From: Squalus acanthias
Lineage: Eukaryota
DNA length: 64,000 nucleotides
Reading direction: 5' to 3'
NCBI GenBank assembly: GCA_030390025.1
Contig: JASTWF010000034.1
Span: 4,402,001 to 4,466,000 of the forward strand
In this document: positions 22,590 to 42,401 of the stretch, one piece after another
Numbering within the stretch: the first letter of the stretch is position 1
Layout of the letters: each line of letters opens with the position of its first letter
Position numbers and translations under genes: made by a program
The notes under the pieces: generated by a model
What the model was told of the DNA's origin: nothing
What the model saw: the letters and a program-made list of their open reading frames with translations, nothing else
Database searches by the model: none

Positions 22590-25217
22590 AATATGTACTC
22601 TACACCTGGGAATACATTTACAGTGATGTGTTAATTTAGACATGATACCCTCTACACTGGGGAATAAAGTTAGAGTTAATTGTTAATTTGACATGATGCC
22701 CTCTACATCGGAGACTAAAGATACATGTTAATTGTTAATTTGACATGATACCCTCTACACCGGAGAATACAGTTAGAGTTAATTGTTAATTTGACATGAT
22801 GCCCTCGACAGTGTTGAATAAAGTTACAGTTAATTGCTAATTTAGACATGATTCCTTCTACTCCAGGGAATGACGTTAAAGTAAATTCTTAATTTAGAAA
22901 TGATTCCCTCTACACCGGGGAATTGAAATTACAGTTAATTGTTAATTTGACATGATGCCCTCTACACCGCGGAATAACGTTGACGTTAATTTTGTATTTG
23001 ATATGTTATCCCCAACAGCACGGAATAATTTTACAGTTAATTGTTAACGTAAACATCAGAAACTCCACACCGGGGAATAAAGTTACAGTTAATTGTTAAT
23101 TTGCCATGATATACTCTACACCTTGGAATTAAAATTACAATTATTAGTTAATTTGACATGATGCCCTCTACACCGGGGAATAAAGTTTCAGTTATTTGCT
23201 AATTTAGACATGATATCTTCGACACCGGGAAATAAAGTTACAGTTCATTTTTAATTTGTCATGATAACCTCTACACTGGGGAATAACGTTAGAGTTGATT
23301 GTGAATATGACATGAGACCCTTTAGACTGGAGAATACTGTTTCAGTCCATTGTTTATAAGATTTCTTATCCTCTAAGCTGGGGAAAACAGTTACAGTTGA
23401 TTGTTAATTTGACATGATACCCTCTACACCGGGGGAAAAATTTACAGATAAATTTTAAATTGACATGATTGCCTCTGCACCGGGGAATAAAGTTAAAGTG
23501 AATTGTTAATTTAGACATGGTTCCCTCTACACCGGGGAATGAAGTTAAAGTTAATTGTTAATTTGACATGATGCCCTCTACAACGGGACTAAAGTTACAG
23601 TTAATTGTTAATTTAGAAATCATTCCCTCTTAACCAGGGAATAAAGTTACAGTTCTTTGTTAATTTTACACGATAAACTCTACACCAGTGAATGAATTTG
23701 CAGTTAATTGTTAATTTCGACATGATACCCTCTACAACGGGAAACAAAGTTACAGTTAATTGATAATTTGACATGATACCCTCTACAAAGGGAAATTAAA
23801 ATTACAGTTAATTGTTAATTTCGACATGATGTCCTCTACACCGGGGGATAAAGTTAGAGTTAATTGCTAATTTAGACATGATACCCTCTACAACGGGAAA
23901 TTAAACTTACAGTTAATTGTTTATTTGACATGATGCCCTCTTCACCTGGGTATAAAGTTACAGTAAATTGTTAATATAGATATGATATCCTATACACCAG
24001 GGAATAATGTTACAGTTAATTGTTAACTAAAACATCATACCCTCCACACCGGGGAATGTAGTTACAGTTAATTGATAATTTTGACTTGATGCTCTCTACA
24101 CCGGGGAATAAAGTTACATTTAATTGTTAAGTTATACAAGATGCCTTCTACAACGGGAAATAAAGTTACAGTTAATTGTTAATTTAGACATGATACCCTC
24201 TAAGCCGGGGTATAAAGTTACAATTAATTTTTAATTTGACATGATGCCCTCTACACCGGGAATAAAGTTACAGTTTATGGTTAATGTAGAAATGATTCCC
24301 TCTACACCGGGTAATTAAAATTACAGTTAATTGTTAATTTGACATGATGTCCTCTACACCGGGGAATAAAGTTATAGGTAATTGTTAACTTAGACATGAT
24401 GCCCTCTGCACTGGCGAATAAAGTAACTGTTAATTGTTAATTTGACATGATGCCCTCTACACCGGGGAATAAATTAACTGATAATTGTTAACTTAGACAT
24501 GATGCCTTCTGCACAGGGAATAAAGTTACAGTAAATTGTTAATTTAGACATGAGAACCTCCACCGGGAAATAAAGTAACAGTTAATTATTAATTTGACAT
24601 GATGCCCTCTACACCAGGGAACAAAGTTACAGTTAATTATTAATTTGACATGATGCCTTCTACACCTGGGAATAAATTTACATTGAATTTTTAATTTAGA
24701 CATGATTCGCTGTACACTGGGGATTAAAGTAACAGTTAATTGTTAATTTCGACATAATACCATCTACCCTGGCGAATTAAAATTACAGTTAATTGTTAAT
24801 TTGACATGCTGTCCTCTACACCGGGGAATAAAGTTACAGTTAATTTTAATTTGACATGATACCCTCTACAACGGGAAATTACAATTACAGTTAATTGTTA
24901 ATATGACATGATGTCCTCTACACCGGGGAATAAAGTTGCAGTTCATTTTGTATTTGTTATATTACCCTCTACACCAGGGAATAATTTTACAATTAATTGT
25001 TAATGTAAACATCAAACCCTCTCCACCGGGAATAAAGTTACAGTAAATTGTTAATTTAAGCATGATACCCTCTACAAGGAGGAAAAATGTTACAGATAAA
25101 TGTTAATTTGACATGATTGTCTCTGCACCAGGGAATAAAGTTAACGTGAATTGTTAATTTAGACATGATTCCCTCTATTCCGCAGAATTAAGTTACAGTT
25201 AATTGTTAATTTGACAT

Positions 25218-25801
25218 TGTTGATAAAAAATGAATTCACTTGAGTCTCTCTCAAAGCAGAAGATCACAGTTTATTTAACAGAGCGCATTGGGAGAAGAGC
25301 CATAGACCCCGCGGTCTAGTAATCAACTTCTCGTCGTTACAGTGGTATCAGAACTTGATTTAGACATTATAGAGCCGGATACGCAATTCATTACATACAA
25401 ATGTCTCCACCAAATCACATTCCCCTAGCAACAAGCCCCTTACCCAATCATATATCTCCACCACTGACTTAATTATAATCTGCACTATAAGCTAAATTTT
25501 CTTGTTACTTCTCTTCCGAAACTGTAAACATACAGAGTGTTGCGCCACATTTGCTTGGCCGGACTGGCTAGTCATGCGGTGATTGATTCTCAATTGTAAC
25601 CGTTGGGCTTTTATCGTAGTCGTTTGTTCCTTATTGGTGGGCTTCAGCTATCTCGCACGTACGCATGTTGACAGTAGACATTACTCATCACACTGTATCA
25701 GAGAAGCCATCTGTCTTGTCTTATTTACGAGTTCACCTTTTACAGCACGTTCTTTAAATCTTTACGTTGCTTCTTTAAGCCCTATAATTTACACCCTAAC
25801 A
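25218..25801 (-). repeat. ERV 3' LTR (584 bp)
   Basis: The minus strand begins TGTTAGGG and ends TCAACA, with AATAAA near 25270. It is directly preceded by a purine-rich tract and is homologous to 31020-31386. Confidence 0.9.
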
Positions 25802-25819
25802 GTCCCTCCTGTTGGTCCC
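25802..25819 (-). other. Polypurine tract
   Basis: Minus strand reads GGGACCAACAGGAGGGAC immediately 5' of the LTR TG. Confidence 0.7.
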
Positions 25820-25995
25820 TGATCAAAACTCTTTTCTGACAGGGAACCAGCATCATGCGGATTTCTGGTAATGTAAGTCGATCTTTGATACAGCATTTGG
25901 CAGTACTTCTTAGTATTCTGGCCTGATGTTCTGTATGTTTACATTCCAGGGGCTCACAGTCCGTTAGTCAGACTGTGGCATCCTTGTATACGGAC

Positions 25996-27146
25996 TCATA
26001 TCCACACATTTCTCTCTCCAGGTGTCAATTGGTTAACCATCATGACACTTACAGCATGCCATGACATTTGAGCGCAACAACATTTTAACAATAGGACCAG
26101 ACCATACATCACTAATATTATAACAAAGAACAAAATCAATCCTTGTACTACTGATGTCCCGAGTGATCCCAACCATCCAGTTGCCCAGCCCCAAAGGGTG
26201 GATGCTGGAGGTTGTTTTAATTTTTTTTACTTCTTCCTGTATGCGTGATGCCAAGTCAGTTATTGCTTCCGAGTTGTCTGGTATGTAGGTGCAGCATTCT
26301 GTACCTATTAGGGCACAGGTTCCCCCTTTTACTGCCAACACATAGTCAAGGGCCATCCGATTTTGTAGAGCTACTGTGCGGAGGTTTGCCATGTCTGCAT
26401 TAACCTTAACTAGGGCTTCAGTAGTATCGTTGGCCACCTGCTGCAAGACGGGGGCCAGGTGAATGGATTCCCTTGCCAATTTACCAGCTCCATAGCAGGA
26501 TAACGCAATTGCCCAGAATCTTTCAGTCTCCGTGATGGCTCGTCTGGCTCTCCCGTGGAGGTCCTTCAGTGAACCCATGTGATATATGTAGCGTTCAACA
26601 TAAGCCAGATAACAAGAACGCGTCCATTCTCGGGGCAACCAGGATAGGCCCTATGACCGCACACGAAATGAGTCCCGTTGTAGGGGGTATACTTATTTAC
26701 CTCTGGGGGGTCCGATTGTACCTCGTTCTCAGGAACGGTGGTAGATAGGAAGCGTTATATATTGACTGTGTTCACCCACTACAATATTCTGAGTTGTACC
26801 CATGACGTTGGAGCTTTGCCATAGTGATGCCGTCTGTCTTGGCTTCATAACAGCCCTCACTTGTGCATCCTGCTCTAACTCCAAACATCTAACTGACCGT
26901 CTCATCATCACTATGTGGGATTGGTTGTAGGGGGACTCCGTCCTCCGAGTGCGTGGGGACATGGGCGCAGACCCAACAGCTGGCAACATCAACTCTCTTG
27001 GCATATGTGTATGACATATATAAAAAGGTGTTCACCCATAACCCTGTTTTGGCCCATGGGTGCACTCTAGCCTGAGTCCTCCCGAGGCTACATATTATGA
27101 TTATACAAACAAGAAAACTACACATGATATTGCGTAACACGTTCAT
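25996..27146 (-). pseudogene. env: Gamma-type retroviral envelope, disrupted and short in SU
   Basis: Signal peptide plus CWVC (26889-27146). Furin site RARR, immunosuppressive domain LQNRMALD and CX6CC (CALIGTECC) in 26033-26638. After a frameshift near the T-run at ~26221-26228, the TM anchor GLILFFVIILVMYGLVLLL and KCCC tail follow. Confidence 0.92.
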
Positions 27147-27250
27147 CTTATCACTTTATGTTAACAATGTCCCAAAGGCTATATCGCCAACCGAACCGCT
27201 TTGTTGCTTGTAGATTTTATTTTCCTGTGGGGGTGAATAGAATACGGTCA

Positions 27251-27484
27251 TTAGGCTGGTTCCTCGATCATAATCAATTGGATTCCCTCCTCCTGCTCGA
27301 CCGATTGGAGTCGATGGGATTGTTCCCATACATACTTCACGATACATCCCATGGCGTATCCCATTATGACAATGCATATTGTCCATACCAACGTTCGTAC
27401 CAGCACCCACTTCCATTCTTTGTATTGTCTATCGTATTCTTCACTTCCCACAAAAGGTACTTGCTCTGGTGTAGCCCCCATCAA
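27251..27484 (-). CDS. Putative small single-pass membrane accessory ORF between pol and env
   Basis: 77 aa ORF on the proviral sense strand with a hydrophobic segment (WVLVRTLVWTICIVIMGYAMGCIV) flanked by charged residues. No recognisable homolog. Confidence 0.35.
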   Translation of the reverse strand: MMGATPEQVPFVGSEEYDRQYKEWKWVLVRTLVWTICIVIMGYAMGCIVKYVWEQSHRLQSVEQEEGIQLIMIEEPA

Positions 27485-27962
27485 GAGGGAGAAGGAAGAT
27501 CCCAGAGTCTATGTACCGGCACTGTTAGGGGGCAGGCAGTGCGATATGTCTGTAGACACGGGAGCTTCTGTATCCATTACCGATTTACCCCTTCCCCTCA
27601 CCAAACAAAGGATAGACATAGTGGGGTTAGGAGGGGAGCGTTTACATGCATTTAAAAGTGAGGTACAAGTATTGGAATTAGCGGGACAACTATTACCCGC
27701 ACAATTTTATGTATGCCCAAACAGTGAGGGGACTATCTTAGGAATAGATTTGTTAAAAGAATTTAATTTGTTAATAGATTCACGACAAGGAAAGTTAACC
27801 TGGGTACAGGGAGACGGGAACAAAGTAAACTGGGGAAAGCCACTTTGCCATTTGGCAACAGTAGGAAGTGCAAAAATCGTGGCCCGGGACGGGAAGGAGG
27901 AAGGAGACTTTGGGAATATATGCAAGGCAATGAAGTCAGTATGGACGACCTCAAAACAGGAC
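27474..27962 (+). pseudogene. pro: Retroviral aspartic protease plus start of RT (inverted relative to gag and env)
   Basis: VDTGAS catalytic motif, IVGLGG flap and ILGIDLL. Ends at SVWTTSKQD, the typical RT N-terminal W...D position. Confidence 0.9.
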
Positions 27963-28820
27963 GACCCATTAAGATACAGATGGCCCACCAACAACGGCCG
28001 AGGGGCCCATGGGAAATTATACAAATAGACTTTATCGGACCACTCCCCACGTCAAGGGGTAAGAAGTATTGCCTGTTAATAATAGACCAGTTTACTAGGT
28101 GGGTCGAGGCATTCCCAACCCGGAACTGTACTGCCACCACCATGGCACGAATAATGGCAGAGGAAATAATTCCCAGGTGGGGAATACCGATCCAAATTGA
28201 CTCAGATCAGGGAACTCACTTTACGGGAGCAGTAGTGAAGAATGTATGCAAGTGGATGGGCATAAGCAGAAATTCCATATTCCGTACAATCCCCAAAGTT
28301 CTGGAATGATGGAACGAATGAACCAAACCTTGAAAACAGCCTTAGCCTAGGCTTTAGGGGACAAACATTGGGTAGATATGTTACCAGCACTCTTATGAAA
28401 CTAAAAGCCACTCCAAACCGAACAACGGGCTTATCACCATATGAGCAAATGACGGGGAGGGCAATGCAACTCTCCCATGGCATAATAACTGGAGGAGAGA
28501 ATGTGGGTCCTCTAAAGGATAGGCTCCGAAGGTATGTCCTCGAATTAAGCAGTTAATTAAAGGAAATGAGGCAGCAAACGTGGGACAGACACGAAGAAAA
28601 GGATAAGGATTTAGAATTGACCGCGTTCCCATATATCCCTCCAGCCGGGACTAAGTTAATATTTAAAGGTTTACCAGGGAATCCCGAGCTTGCCCCAAAA
28701 TGGTCAGGACCATATCGGATTTTACTTAGTGGAGATACGTGTGCTTGCATTGATATGAAGGGCATGGGACGATGGAAGCACTGGACACAGCTAAAAGTCT
28801 ATGACCCTTCGCCAGCTTAA
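27957..28820 (+). pseudogene. pol: Retroviral integrase core and C-terminal domain, lacking the HHCC zinc finger (inverted relative to gag and env)
   Basis: PWEIIQIDFIGPLP, IIDQFTRWVEAFP, IDSDQGTHF, PYNPQSSGMMERMN (after a frameshift), TGLSPYE and PKWSGPY (GPY/F), with internal stops. Confidence 0.92.
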
Positions 28821-28836
28821 ATAGGGCCGCAGCTAG

Positions 28837-30529
28837 TCAGTGGTCGCCAACATGTTCCTTTACATACTGCAGGAACTTTTGATACATATCAATGGTCCCG
28901 GTCTGGTTTGGCTCTTCCTTTTTTGTCCAACACCTCTCGGTTGAATGTCCCGGTCTTCCGCAATTGGGGGCCCTACATTCTTTTGCCATATGACCCAACT
29001 TCCCACAGTTAAAACATGCCCCTTTCTTTCTTTGCGACAGTTCCCGTATCCCTGCGGCCCCTACTCTTTCTTGTTTTATTACTAGTGTTTGTCTCGCCTC
29101 TTTGGCATCTATCTGACACGCCCACTGGACCGCCGCATCATATGTATTCGCCGGCACTATTCCCATTTTTAATATCGCTTGGTGGGATTGGGACAACCCG
29201 TCCTTAAACATTTGAATAAAGGGCTGGTCTGTCATCTGGGGATTTGCTTGTCCCGATGATTCCTGGTATACGACGAACAGTCGTTCGCCATAATAACTAC
29301 TGCTTTCCCCTTTCCGCTGTTTTATTATCATTATAAGTCCCCAATTTGGTGAGGATCCTCCTAAGGCTGCCTGGACCGCTGCTTTAAAGGGGTTGTAGCC
29401 CGCGAGTTGGGCCGCCTTGTCCGCAATTAAGGCGATACGGCTGGTACAGCCACTGTCTCGGTGACCGTTTTGGTTATCCACCTCCCTCCATTTGTCAGCC
29501 GGGCATTTAGCCCGTACCAGCTGGGGGATATCCCGAGGATGGAGGTCGTGGATATCCCACATCTCCTCGAGATTTCTCCAAAATTCTCCATTTGTGCTAC
29601 GGGGCTTGAATGTTCCCAAACCTTTCAATATTGTTTGTGATTCTAAGTGGCTAAAAGCTTTGTACTTGGCTGTGGTATTCTGTACCGTTCCCTTTCTTTT
29701 TAAAGGGGCTGCCTTGACTACGTTTGGGTTCTTTCTGTGTAATTTCCTAATATCTATTTCTTCCACCTGTGCACTGGCTACGTTTTCTTCAACCATTTCT
29801 TGTTCAAGAGCTTACTGTGCTGCAAATATCAGCGGCATGGTTCCCTCTTTGTTCCTGATTTTGTATTTTCTGGTGCGCCTTTATTTTTATTACTGCTGCT
29901 AGTGTTGGAGCCTTTGCAGCTTCAAAGAGCGCCTCTACCCTCCGCTATTAATGCAAAATTTGGTATGTACCTCCGACTGTTATTAAAGAGTCCTAACACT
30001 TTTCTGACCTCACCTTACCGAGACGGGTCTTGGCATCTCTTGGATCGCCTTCCGTCGGTCTTGTGCCATGGTCCTTACCCCCTTGGACATTTGTTGTCCC
30101 AAATATGTGACCGTAGTCTGCCCAATTTGTGCCTTTTTCGGGTTTACTTTGAACTCTCCTGTTTCTAGGGCTTGCAGAACCACCACCAGGGCGGCAGCAT
30201 GCCCTCTGCTGTCTTCTGATGCTATCAACATATCATCTATATATTGTAACTCTTGTTCTAATTCAAGAATTATTTTATTTTTACTTGCAAGTCTAGTGTG
30301 GAGTCGCTGCACCTTGTTCGTTAATGCAACAAATTGGTTTACTAGTATTACCCTCGCCTTTTTCGTCTTTTTCTGTTATTGACCCTCTACCACTCTCTTT
30401 TACCTTCGGATTCTGGAGCGGATCCCACCCCTCCTTCGTCATCTTATCAACTAAACCCTTCCGGTCGTCTGCATAGATCCTAGTAAGGGACCCCATTGGG
30501 CCCCATTCTATTTGTTTCCCCGACGCCAT
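28837..30529 (-). pseudogene. gag: gag, interrupted by a 507 bp pol-derived insert
   Basis: N-terminus MASGKQIEWGP at 30529. Capsid MHR-like IKQRKGESSSYYGERLF. Zn knuckle CFNCGKLGHMAKEC and a second partial knuckle NCGRPGHSTERC. TGA stop at 28837-28839. Confidence 0.9.
29738..30249 (-). pseudogene. pol: RT (YIDD to thumb) fused to RNase H C-terminal fragment, embedded in gag
   Basis: LQYIDDMLIAS..FKVNPKKAQ..VTYLG..KVLGLFNNSRRYIPNFALIAE (RT), then ALFEAAKAPTLAAVIKIKAHQK..EQRGNHAAD (RNase H H-loop and GN.AD). Confidence 0.88.
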
Positions 30530-30999
30530 TTGCAGTCCAACTTACAGTCTTACCTGGTGCTGAGTTCCTCTACTCGGGCTTGTTCTTGATACTTTAAAGA
30601 CCTTCAATTTGTTAATCAGTCACAACACATATATATATTTGCTGACTGCACGATCCCAGGTTGCTTTGGAGCCTCTACGCTTACTTGATCCTGACCATCA
30701 CGTGGGACTACGTCCTCTTAATTCAGGCTCAGGCTAGGTGTTTGAAACAGGCACCCTCCTTGTCCGTGTCTTTCCATCACTCACTCATTCCTTTGCGACA
30801 TTTATCACTACACAGTGTTCCCTTTAGGACTTGCGATCCACACCCTAACAATTGTGTTCTCCTACCTCTCACAGACCTTACTTGATTCGTGATGCTACGG
30901 CACTGTCACTCCACCTTTCCAGGTGACTCAATTTCTGGACGGTCAAAATTGACTTCTCGTCCGAGTTCACTGGTGCGGGCGGTCTTTCAGGTCCAGAGC

Positions 31000-31017
31000 A
31001 TCCTGCCGACTACGCCA
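31000..31017 (-). other. Primer binding site complementary to tRNA-Ser
   Basis: Plus strand ATCCTGCCGACTACGCCA equals the 3' 18 nt of vertebrate tRNA-Ser(AGA/TGA) and lies 2 nt from the 5' LTR end. Confidence 0.88.
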
Positions 31018-31019
31018 AT

Positions 31020-31386
31020 TATTGGTGAACAATGAATTCACTCTAGTCTGTCTCAAAGCAGAGGATCACAGTTTATTTAACAGAGCATTCTGGGAGAAGA
31101 GCCATAGACCCCGAGGTCCAGTAATCAACTTCTCGTTGTTACAGTGGTATCGGAACTTCTTTTATACATTATAGGTTTGGGTATGCAATTCATTGCATAC
31201 AAATGTCTTCACCCAATCACATTCCCCCAGCAACAAGGTCCTTAATTATAATCTGCACTTTAAGCTATATTTTATTGTTACTTCCCTTCCAAAACAATAA
31301 ACATATGGAGTGTTGCGTCACATCTGTCTGGCCAGACTGGCTAGTCATGCGGTGATTGTTTCTGAAGTGTAACTGTTGTGCTATTA
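31020..31386 (-). repeat. ERV 5' LTR, truncated in U3
   Basis: Aligns to 25218-~25613 with many substitutions and a ~30 bp deletion. Homology stops before the LTR start. Confidence 0.88.
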
Positions 31387-31409
31387 TTGCCATGGCATAG
31401 GAGTTTATT

Positions 31410-38890: not shown

Positions 38891-41800
38891 GGCAGGTTCA
38901 GCACGGTTTACATACAGAGTAATGCTTCCTCTGCAATGTCGCATCCAACACTCCCAGTGTAGGTATAGCACGGGTAGATACAGAGTAAAGAACCCTCTGC
39001 ACTGTCCTTTCAAATACTCCCGAGTAAAGAACAGCACTGGTTCGATTCCGAGCAAAGATCCGTCTGCACAGTCTCATCAAACAATTCCAGTGCTGAAACA
39101 GCACGGATTAGATACAGAGTAAAGCTCCCGCTACACAGTTCCATCAAAGAAACCCAGGTATAGGGAGCAAGGGTTTGATACAGAGTAAAGATCCCTCTGC
39201 ACTCTCCCATCAAACACTCCTAGGGCAGATACAGCACGGATTAGTTACAGTGTAAGCTCCCTCTGCACTGTCCCATCAAACAATCCTAGGGCAGTTACAG
39301 AACGGGTTGGGTAAAGAATAAAGCTCTCTCTTCACTGTCCCATCAAACACACCTAGGGCAGGTACAGCACGGGTTAGATAACGAATAAAGCTCTCCCTTC
39401 ACTGTCCATTCAGACAGTCCCTAGTCACGAACAGCACGGGTTAGATTCATAGTTAAGATTGTCTGCACAGTCCCATCAAACACTTCCATTGCAGGAACAG
39501 CACGGGGAAGATACAGAGTAAAGCTCCTTCTAAATTGTCCCATCAAACAATCCTAGGGCAGGTACCGCACGGGTTTGATACAGAGCAAAGTTCCCCCTGG
39601 GCTATCGCATCAAACACATCCAGGTATAGACAGCACTGGTCAGACTCAGAGTAAAGCTCCCTCGACACTGTCCCATCAAACACTCCATGGGTAGGTACAG
39701 CACGGGTTAGATACAGAGTAAAGCTCCCTCTACACTGCACCGTCAAACATTGCCAGGGTAGGAACAGCACGGGTTAGATACAGAGTAAAGCTCCCTCTAC
39801 ACTGTCCCATCAGACTCTCCCAGGACAGGTACTGCACGGGTTAGATACAGAAAACAGCTACCTCGACACTGTCCCTCCAACACTCCCAAGGCAGGTACTG
39901 CACGGGTTAAGTACAGAGTAAAGCTCCTACCACAGTGTAGAGGGAGCTTTACTCTGTATTTAACCCATGCTTTAACTGCCCTGAGAGTGTTTGATGGGAT
40001 AGTGTAGCGTCTACACTATCCCATCAAACACTCCCAGGGCAGACAAAGCATCGGTTAGATACAGAGTAAAGCTCCCTCTACATTATCCCATCAAACACTC
40101 CCAGGGCTGATACAGCACCAGGTTAGATACCGAGTAAAGCTCCCTCTACACTGTCCCATCAAACACTCCTAGGGCAGATACAGCACGGGTTAGATACAGA
40201 GTAAATCTCCCTCCACACTGTCCCATCAAACACTCCTAGGGCAGATACAGCACGGATTAGATACAGAGTAAAGAACCCTCTACACTGTCCCATCAAACAC
40301 TTCTAGGGCAGATACAGCACAAGTTAAACACAGAGTAAAGCTCGCTCTACACAGTCCCCATCATGCACTTCGAGGGCAGGTACAGCACGGGTTAGATACC
40401 GAGTAAAGCTCCCTCTACACTGTCCCATCAAACACTCGGAGGGCAGGTACAGCACGGGTTAGATACAGAGTAAAGCTCCCTCTACACTGTCCCGACACAC
40501 ACTCCCAGGGCAGGTAAAGCACGTGTTTGATACAGAGTAAAGCTCCCCCTACATTGTCCCATCAAACACTCGCAGAGAAGGTACAGCACTGGTTAGATAC
40601 AGTATAAAGCTCCCTCTACACTGTCCCATCAAACACTCGGAGGGCAGGTTCAGCACGGTTTACATACAGAGTAATGCTTCCTCTGCTCTGTCGCATCCAA
40701 CACTCCCAGTGTAGGGATAGCACGGGTAGATACAGAGTAAAGATCCCTCTGCACTGTCCTTTCAAATACTCCCGAGTAAAGAACAGCGCTGGTTCGATTC
40801 AGAGCAAAGATCCGTCTGCACAGTCTCATCAAACAATTCCAGTGCTGAAACAGCACGGATTAGATACAGAGTAAAGCTCCCGCTACACAGTTCCATCAAA
40901 GAAACCCAGGTATAGGGAGCAAGGGTTTGATACAGAGTAAAGATCCCTCTGCACTCTCCCATCAAACACTCCTAGGGCAGATACAGCACGGATTAGTTAC
41001 AGTGTAAGCTCCCTCTGCACTGTCCCATCAAACAATCCTAGGGCAGTTACAGAACGGGTTGGGTAAAGAATAAAGCTCTCTCTTCACTGTCCCATCAAAA
41101 ACACCTAGGGCAGGTACAGCACGGGTTAGATAACGAATAAAGCTCTCCCTTCACTGTCCCATCAGACAGTCCCTAGTCACGAACAGCACGGGTTAGATTC
41201 ATAGTTAAGATTGTCTGCACAGTCCCATCAAACACTTCCATTGCAGGAACAGCACGGGGAAGATACAGAGTAAAGCTCCTTCTAAATTGTCCCATCAAAC
41301 AATCCTAGGGCAGGTACCGCACGGGTTTGATACAGAGCAAAGTTCCCCCTGGGCTATCGCATCAATCACATCCAGGTATGGACAGCACTGGTCAGACTCA
41401 GAGTAAAGCTCCCTCGACACTGTCCCATCAAACACTCCATGGGTAGGTACAGCACGGGTTAGATACAGAGTAAAGCTCCCTCTACACTGCACCGTCAAAC
41501 ATTGCCAGGGTAGGAACAGCACGGGTTAGATACAGAGTAAAGCTCCCTCTACACTGTCCCATCAGACTCTCCCAGGACAGGTACTGCACGGGTTAGATAC
41601 AGAAAACAGCTGCCTCGACACTGTCCCATCCAACACTCCCAAGGCAGGTACTGCACGGGTTAAGTACAGAGTAAAGCTCCTACCACAGTGTAGAGGGAGC
41701 TTTACTCTGTATTTAACCCATGCTTTAACTGCCCTGAGAGTGTTTGATGGGATAGTGTAGCGTCTACACTATCCCATCAAACACTCCCAGGGCAGATAAA

Positions 41801-42401
41801 GCATCGGTTAGATACAGAGTAAAGCTCCCTCTACATTATCCCATCAAACACTCCCAGGGCTGATACAGCACCAGGTTAGATACCGAGTAAAGCTCCCTCT
41901 ACACGGTCCCATCAAACACTCCTAGGGCAGATACAGCACGGGTTAGATACAGAGTAAATCTCCCTCCACACTGTCCCATCAAACACTCCTAGGGCAGATA
42001 CAGCACGGATTAGATACAGAGTAAAGAACCCTCTACACTGTCCCATCAAACACTTCTAGGGCAGATACAGCACAAGTTAAACACAGAGTAAAGCTCGCTC
42101 TACACAGTCCCCATCATGCACTTCGAGGGCAGGTACAGCACGGGTTAGATACCGAGTAAAGCTCCCTCTACACTGTCCCATCAAACACTCGGAGGGCAGG
42201 TACAGCACGGGTTAGATACAGAGTAAAGCTCCCTCTACACTGTCCCGACACACACTCCCAGGGCAGGTAAAGCACGTGTTTGATACAGAGTAAAGCTCCC
42301 CCTACATTGTCCCATCAAACACTCGCAGAGAAGGTACAGCACTGGTTAGATACAGTATAAAGCTCCCTCTACACTGTCCCATCAAACACTCGGAGGGCAG
42401 G
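38891..42401. repeat. ~1752 bp near-identical tandem duplication within the 67 bp satellite
   Basis: Matching ORF pairs at offset 1752 (38898/40650, 39010/40762, 39543/41295), with shared inverted units. Confidence 0.9.

Follow-up and report, generated by a model that had tools for sequence, protein, structure and literature searches.

Reverse transcriptase and RNase H pieces set inside the gag gene of a rearranged class I endogenous retrovirus of Squalus acanthias

INTRODUCTION

Intramolecular template switching by reverse transcriptase (RT) is known to yield deletions with insertions (Pathak and Temin 1990, as cited in PMC3187697). Comparable disorder is documented among defective HIV-1 and HTLV-1c proviruses, which carry large deletions, inversions, and microhomology joints (PMC9278108; PMC13427564). 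Deletion and inversion proviruses account for 1.3% plus 1.3% of an HIV set (PMC9278108), inversions for 1.9% in HTLV-1c, and microhomologies of 4–10 nucleotides (nts) are found in 31% of HTLV-1c proviruses, where RT switching or MMEJ is possible (PMC13427564). Microhomology cannot tell RT switching from MMEJ, and post-integration damage is favored for HTLV-1 (PMC13427564). Class I endogenous retroviruses (ERVs), for their part, are known in cartilaginous fishes, the CmiERV lineages II/III being examples (PMC4422223).

The provirus described here lies in 64,000 nts of Squalus acanthias DNA (contig JASTWF010000034.1, positions 4,402,001 to 4,466,000; this whole stretch is called the window, and all coordinates refer to it). 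It offers a clear natural case of a provirus rearranged at six joints (J1 to J6) with no piece used twice, in which parts of pol stand inside gag. Like the cartilaginous-fish class I ERVs, it possesses the parts LTR-PBS-gag-pro-pol-env-PPT-LTR, gamma-type env motifs, and an MLV-type integrase tail; unlike theirs (PMC4422223), its gene order is scrambled. With the RT deletions-with-insertions it shares a probable loss at the joint, filling from elsewhere in the genome, and little or no joint homology, whereas its fixation in the germ line, its ~0.5 kb insert with an older deletion, and the inversion of its remaining pol set it apart from the cases in PMC3187697. The HIV-1 and HTLV-1c defects are somatic and recent, while the shark copy is old and endogenous, and one of its six joints is common to other copies of the family. 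A literature search of partial coverage returned no report of pol pieces inside the gag of a fish ERV. The feature is real and unusually complex, yet of a known kind, and likely a retroviral copying error.

A DEFECTIVE CLASS I ELEMENT

The window has the composition of animal DNA, with satellites and LINE-like repeats. Its LTR element occupies 25216–31387 on the minus strand and contains remnants of gag, protease, RT, integrase, and env, recognized in Pfam as zf-CCHC, RVP, RVT_1, rve, and TLV_coat. Judged by its domains and motifs, the element is a defective class I (gamma/epsilon-like) ERV. The pol domains are nearest to MLV-type RT, RNase H, and integrase, and the top PDB matches are RT and RNase H chains of XMRV/MLV type. 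The integrase is 73–78% identical to the nearest proteins, and the named close relatives include those of the sharks Mustelus asterias, Pristiophorus japonicus, and Heterodontus francisci. Downstream of pol lie the env remnants (26036–27155, minus strand; TLV_coat E 1.1e-8), whose frame is broken by stops and frameshifts. They preserve CWVC at 26978, LQNRMALD at 26368, and CALIGTECC at 26317, which are the SU CXXC, the TM immunosuppressive-domain motif, and the CX6CC cysteines of TM, respectively.

An LTR pair and sites resembling a primer-binding site (PBS) and a polypurine tract are all present; the target-site duplication is unreadable, the 5′ LTR being truncated. The 5′ LTR remnant (31018–31387, minus strand) was recognized by self-blastn to 25216–25614 at 80% identity including gaps. 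It is short of ~200 nts of upstream U3 and adjoins unrelated repeat DNA. Between the two LTRs, 48 of 356 ungapped columns differ (13.5%), in addition to one 29-nt indel. Immediately after the LTR end comes the PBS-like 18-mer (31000–31017, minus strand), presumably a match to the 3′ end of tRNA-Ser; a search for tRNA genes found none. At the opposite end, the polypurine tract and 3′ LTR (25216–25810, minus strand) adjoin a 52-nt satellite array. The 3′ LTR itself extends over 25216–25801, and the neighboring array fills most of 1–25200. Referred to the map of a relative, the order within the element reads gag 5′, RT piece, RNase H and linker, gag 3′, inverted integrase, inverted protease, and env.

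RT AND RNASE H PIECES WITHIN GAG

The 5′ part of gag (30250–30529, minus strand) is matrix-like with a helix, aligns to the N-termini of the Gag relatives P0123, P0121, and P0127, and is disrupted by a frameshift near 30370. A sequence-only reading of the window had described a gag segment that runs in frame into the QYIDD of RT, and precisely such a passage into LQYIDD is seen, with gag on its upstream side. That this flank might itself be divergent RT was considered and rejected: alignments of the flank to RT that ran 10–26 residues past LQY were of the chance kind, the PQG.HNSP motif that precedes Y.DD in Pol relatives is missing, and the flank aligns to the Gag relatives P0121 (61–99) and P0127 (51–93), each at 0 of 300 shuffles. 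The RT piece proper (29940–30249, minus strand) extends from palm to thumb, is detected by RVT_1, PDB, and tblastn, and corresponds to residues 363–465 of the Pol relative P0277. Its portion from LQYIDD to the thumb (30013–30249) returned the RVT_1 match that the reading had called for as a check (E 2.8e-9), together with MLV/XMRV RT in PDB (E 4.5e-7). A frameshift and a stop intervene near 30010–30012, past which the piece continues in a new frame to 29940.

At J2 (29937–29944, minus strand), the RT thumb is joined out of frame to the C-terminus of RNase H, with ~295 codons missing. The RNase H piece (29828–29941, minus strand; P0277 761–804) aligns to 5/5 Pol relatives at 0/500 shuffles and to 0/2 Gag controls. 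A Pfam search with its 38 amino acids gave no match, and PDB gave six weak matches, all of them RNase H chains (E 0.76–0.97). The jump at ~29940 to an RNase H C-terminus is therefore upheld by alignment, with the Pfam profile silent. The linker between RNase H and integrase follows (29735–29827, minus strand), with a frameshift near 29827 and a stop at 29814. It aligns to P0277 810–841, P0003 702–733, and P0017 236–264, each at 0/500 shuffles, that is, to three of five Pol relatives; alignment was not significant in P0004 (20/500) or P0007 (256/500).

Other copies of the family were available as contigs from four runs, whose codes point to three organisms; the contigs come from individuals other than the window's own (best share 0.35) and cover all 30 bins in 4/4 runs. 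J2 is the only joint seen bridged in them. A contig of run X1 (record 7) spans 29877–30009 with 15 differences and no gaps, 11% from the window. Contigs of runs X2 and X10 probably bridge it as well, their spans of at least 29887–30015 (X2) and 29892–30010 (X10) being read off the distance-to-end column of the contig table as calibrated on the X1 contig. Pieces from run X4 break off at 29944 and at 29937, the behavior expected of undeleted copies. Because J2 exists in other copies, the deletion is older than the window copy; the jump from RT to RNase H is thus an older deletion common to other copies, not a switch of the window copy's own. The family accordingly includes a lineage with an internal pol deletion, present in other individuals and probably in another species.

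A separate observation concerns 29945–29986 (minus strand), where the RT thumb DNA, read in another frame, looks like the RNase H sequence that in relatives lies just upstream of the acceptor. Such imperfect DNA similarity may have favored the common deletion, or may be chance. Shifting J2 further upstream on account of this likeness was tried and rejected, since in other copies the variants of the stretch affect third codon positions in the RT frame and the X4 pieces stop at the two positions given above.

TTACA WORDS AND THE RETURN TO GAG

Past the linker, gag resumes with its 3′ part (28837–29734, minus strand), which is capsid-like, bears a CCHC knuckle, and is open to its stop (zf-CCHC E 1e-6; P0121 E 7e-52). 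The sequence-only reading had placed the whole insert between TTACA direct repeats. Minus-strand TTACA does occur at 30245–30249 and 29738–29742, 507 nts apart, and these are the sole two occurrences in 29401–30700. Their role as boundaries may hold for the first word only. It comprises the Leu-Gln codons of the RT LQYIDD, and J1, the gag-to-RT joint, falls at or within it (minus strand), a contig of run X4 (record 32) beginning exactly at 30249. It may be a real microhomology at J1. The second word lies within pol: it comprises the Leu-His codons of the linker, an LH conserved in five of the six relatives listed, and J3, the return to gag, lies just beyond it at ~29735. In X4, the match of a pol contig extends down to 29736 and that of a gag contig starts only at 29734, two of its letters being clipped; 29734 is likewise where the gag pieces of X1 and X2 stop. 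This bracket is good but not final, as it is drawn from few contigs of copies 6–12% different from the window. TTA serves for 24 of the 77 Leu codons in the element (31%). For the second TTACA, a coincidence of codons is the likely explanation.

A literal insertion of pol DNA at a TTACA of gag, as a circle or with target duplication and with no gag lost, is unlikely. It has in its favor that the two words, which share a codon phase, stand at or close to the two ends, that the X4 contig starts exactly at 30249, and that a common 5-mer at two junction windows is expected by chance at 1.1% (±1 nt) or 4.9% (±3) in tight windows, a figure that rises to 15% at ±6. Such an insertion would place a repeat derived from gag at both breakpoints; the 3′ word, as we have seen, encodes the LH of pol, and the conserved LQ and LH, in an element so rich in TTA leucines, explain both words. 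The contigs that bracket J3 put the joint outside the second word, and the skip from 29737 to 30245 is absent among the 15 of 16 contig joints listed, the loose ends listed being 24 of 377. The TTACA signature is mostly codon coincidence, and the pair is a doubtful candidate for a duplicated target or for a working microhomology at both ends. The 507-nt spacing had also been noted to be a multiple of 3, which is without meaning here. No single frame runs through the segment: that of RT reaches a stop at 30012, stops occur in all three frames, and the pieces run in phases 0, 1, 2, and 0, so that the spacing is the sum of two frameshifts and one out-of-frame joint. No fusion protein or working product is encoded.

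The same model also predicts an undiminished gag, and comparison with relatives points the other way. The distance from a conserved helix motif to the AP motif before the capsid is 81, 88, and 81 residues in three Gag relatives and 46 in the window flanks, leaving the site 35–42 residues short. Both flanks could be aligned in 3 of 52 proteins examined, with projected gaps of 38, 45, and 24 residues. A proline-tyrosine motif, late-domain-like in character, is present at the site in 3/3 Gag relatives and missing from the window flanks. Whether gag had been lost was a check proposed earlier, and the answer is likely yes: the insert probably replaces ~110–130 nts of gag (about 35–42 codons) rather than entering cleanly, as estimated from distant Gag relatives that are 29–44% identical and vary in spacer length. 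Gag does not normally include the insert, because two distant intact relatives (L001 and L002, loci from the integrase scans) have the ordinary order gag-PR-RT-RNase H-IN. These scans yielded distant loci only, at 37–54% identity. Neither the gag 3′ piece nor the RT piece gave a match in word-index protein searches, viral and metagenome contigs scanned for relatives of gag yielded none, and P0277 gave no match in a scan of viral contigs.

THE INVERTED POL BLOCK AND OTHER COPIES

The remainder of pol is found beyond the gag stop on the opposite strand. Protease and the start of RT (27477–27962, plus strand; RVP E 8.2e-5) are followed by the integrase core and C-terminus (27957–28820, plus strand; P0277 925–1208; rve E 6.9e-14 and MLVIN_C E 8.6e-4, the latter below its curated cut-off). 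This integrase is frameshifted and missing its N-terminus. J5, the deletion that joins the two, removes P0277 197–924 with an overlap of ~6 nts (27957–27962); some contig pieces stop at 27962 and others start at 27957, and other copies show the undeleted form only. The two ends of the inversion (J4 and J6) are marked by a 4-nt inverted word at 28824–28827 that recurs at 27474–27477, and they coincide almost exactly with the gag and integrase stops. Contigs show opposite-strand joints at 27476/28821 (X2, X4, and X10) and 27479/28832 (X10), and other copies therefore keep pol in sense orientation.

Both pieces inserted in gag fall inside P0277 197–924 and thus derive, as the sequence-only reading had proposed, from the stretch missing in the inverted block. 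The further proposition that much of pol persists in permuted form is half right: pieces did move into gag, and Pol is represented by 641 of the 1211 residues of P0277 (53%), the remainder being missing from the whole 64-kb window. Each Pol or Gag segment of the relatives occurs at most once in the element. A simple cut-and-paste of the piece deleted from the block was rejected, since the insert ends (P0277 363 and 841) mismatch the deletion ends (196 and 925); the same disagreement counts against the TTACA insertion discussed above.

A search for other copies with the same insert had been recommended: J2 is present in other copies, and J1 and J3 to J6 are bridged in none of the contigs listed. 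The window differs from the contigs at ~250 of 5211 places per run, all kinds of change summed. Divergence is uneven along the element (Fisher p 2e-6): 1.1–1.4% in protease and integrase and 4–7% in gag from the contigs listed, which are the longest and not the nearest, beside the 13.5% between the LTRs. Further joints in other copies, at 26157/27142 (X4) and 27895/28491 (X2, X4, and X10), amount to large skips in env and in protease-integrase, and the family therefore holds several deleted forms. Could the order in the window be the artefact of an assembly that joined reads of different members of a high-copy family? The family's complete coverage in every run, the repeat density of the region, and the five of six joints that go unbridged in other runs would suit such a chimera. 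We nonetheless hold it to be very unlikely: J2 is present in an independent run, the joint overlaps of 0–6 nts would be far under assembler overlap lengths, and the inversion ends almost exactly at the gag and integrase stops.

ORIGIN OF THE ARRANGEMENT

The best explanation, to which we give evenly balanced confidence, is that RT switched templates on a genome with an earlier deletion and so produced a deletion with insertion, pol being inverted in a separate event. The locus displays a probable loss at the joint together with same-polarity sequence from elsewhere in the same genome. The donor RNA would already have been deleted at J2, and thus would have been without the stretch from RT thumb to RNase H; a pre-deleted lineage is proposed as donor because J2 is bridged in the X1 contig and probably in those of X2 and X10. 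During minus-strand synthesis, RT would have skipped from integrase to the RT start (J5) and then copied protease and the 3′ part of gag. It may next have jumped onto the skipped, undegraded pol RNA, or onto a co-packaged partner (J3), copied the linker, RNase H, and RT piece, and come back into gag at a more upstream point, in or close to the first TTACA (J1). The inversion of pol between the 4-nt inverted words would be a separate, probably later event at the DNA level; it is taken as separate because it needs a DNA template and the insert stays sense. In support of switching, the insert is still in sense orientation and its source is the skipped interval. That segments are never used twice fits the removal of copied RNA by RNase H. 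This non-duplication is only mildly informative, as a random donor segment would lie inside the missing interval with p about 0.22. On the opposite side of the ledger, the cut 5′ LTR and the differing flanks point to DNA-level mixing of copies. As to whether the joints predate integration, the LTRs are 13.5% apart and only J2 is seen in other copies.

Host DNA repair after integration could instead have made all the joints, including the inversion, by MMEJ, break-induced template switching, or ectopic recombination in this satellite-rich region, the patch being drawn from the pol DNA of the provirus itself or of another J2-deleted copy. We rate this as possible, though short of probable. The DNA template that the inversion needs is congruent with it, as are the overlaps of 4–6 nts at J4 to J6, the truncated 5′ LTR with satellite on one side of the element and other repeats on the opposite side, the LTR divergence of 13.5% with its 29-nt indel, and the uneven contig identity along the element; MMEJ is given as an equal source of such joints (PMC13427564). 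The LTR divergence may reflect age alone, given the ~250 of 5211 differences to the contigs, and the sense orientation of the insert and its provenance in the skipped interval are what the RT path predicts. The sequence-only reading had named both multiple template switches and microhomology-mediated repair as the agents that moved pol into gag. The pieces did move and both mechanisms are live, but J2 was inherited. A single element cannot decide between RT switching and host repair.

A more far-reaching possibility, which we consider doubtful, is that the composite of gag with RT and RNase H constitutes a multi-copy, non-autonomous subfamily, assembled in steps, with J2 preceding the transfer into gag, and copied in trans within several species of cartilaginous fishes. 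It is suggested because J2 is bridged in other runs and because X4 record 32, from another organism, starts at the first TTACA. This contig also crosses the window's RT frameshift without a gap, and hints that the composite exists in another organism; contig ends are frequent. If the subfamily is real, it would preserve, as a series of fossils, the non-homologous RT jumps that one retroviral lineage made one after another, and the order of the jumps could become datable copy by copy.

Two minor features of the window may be recorded. Between the inversion end and env, 27254–27475 (minus strand) holds a 74-codon open frame with a hydrophobic stretch, for which Pfam gave no match and an Atlas search gave weak leads only; loose ends of other copies at 28821 have an ATG right after the integrase stop. 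The frame is possibly what the inversion has left of a small accessory gene for a membrane protein. Outside the element, inverted repeat arms at 39873–40082 and 41618–41835 (147 nts, 92% complementary, ~1.6 kb apart) lie inside a 67-nt satellite array.
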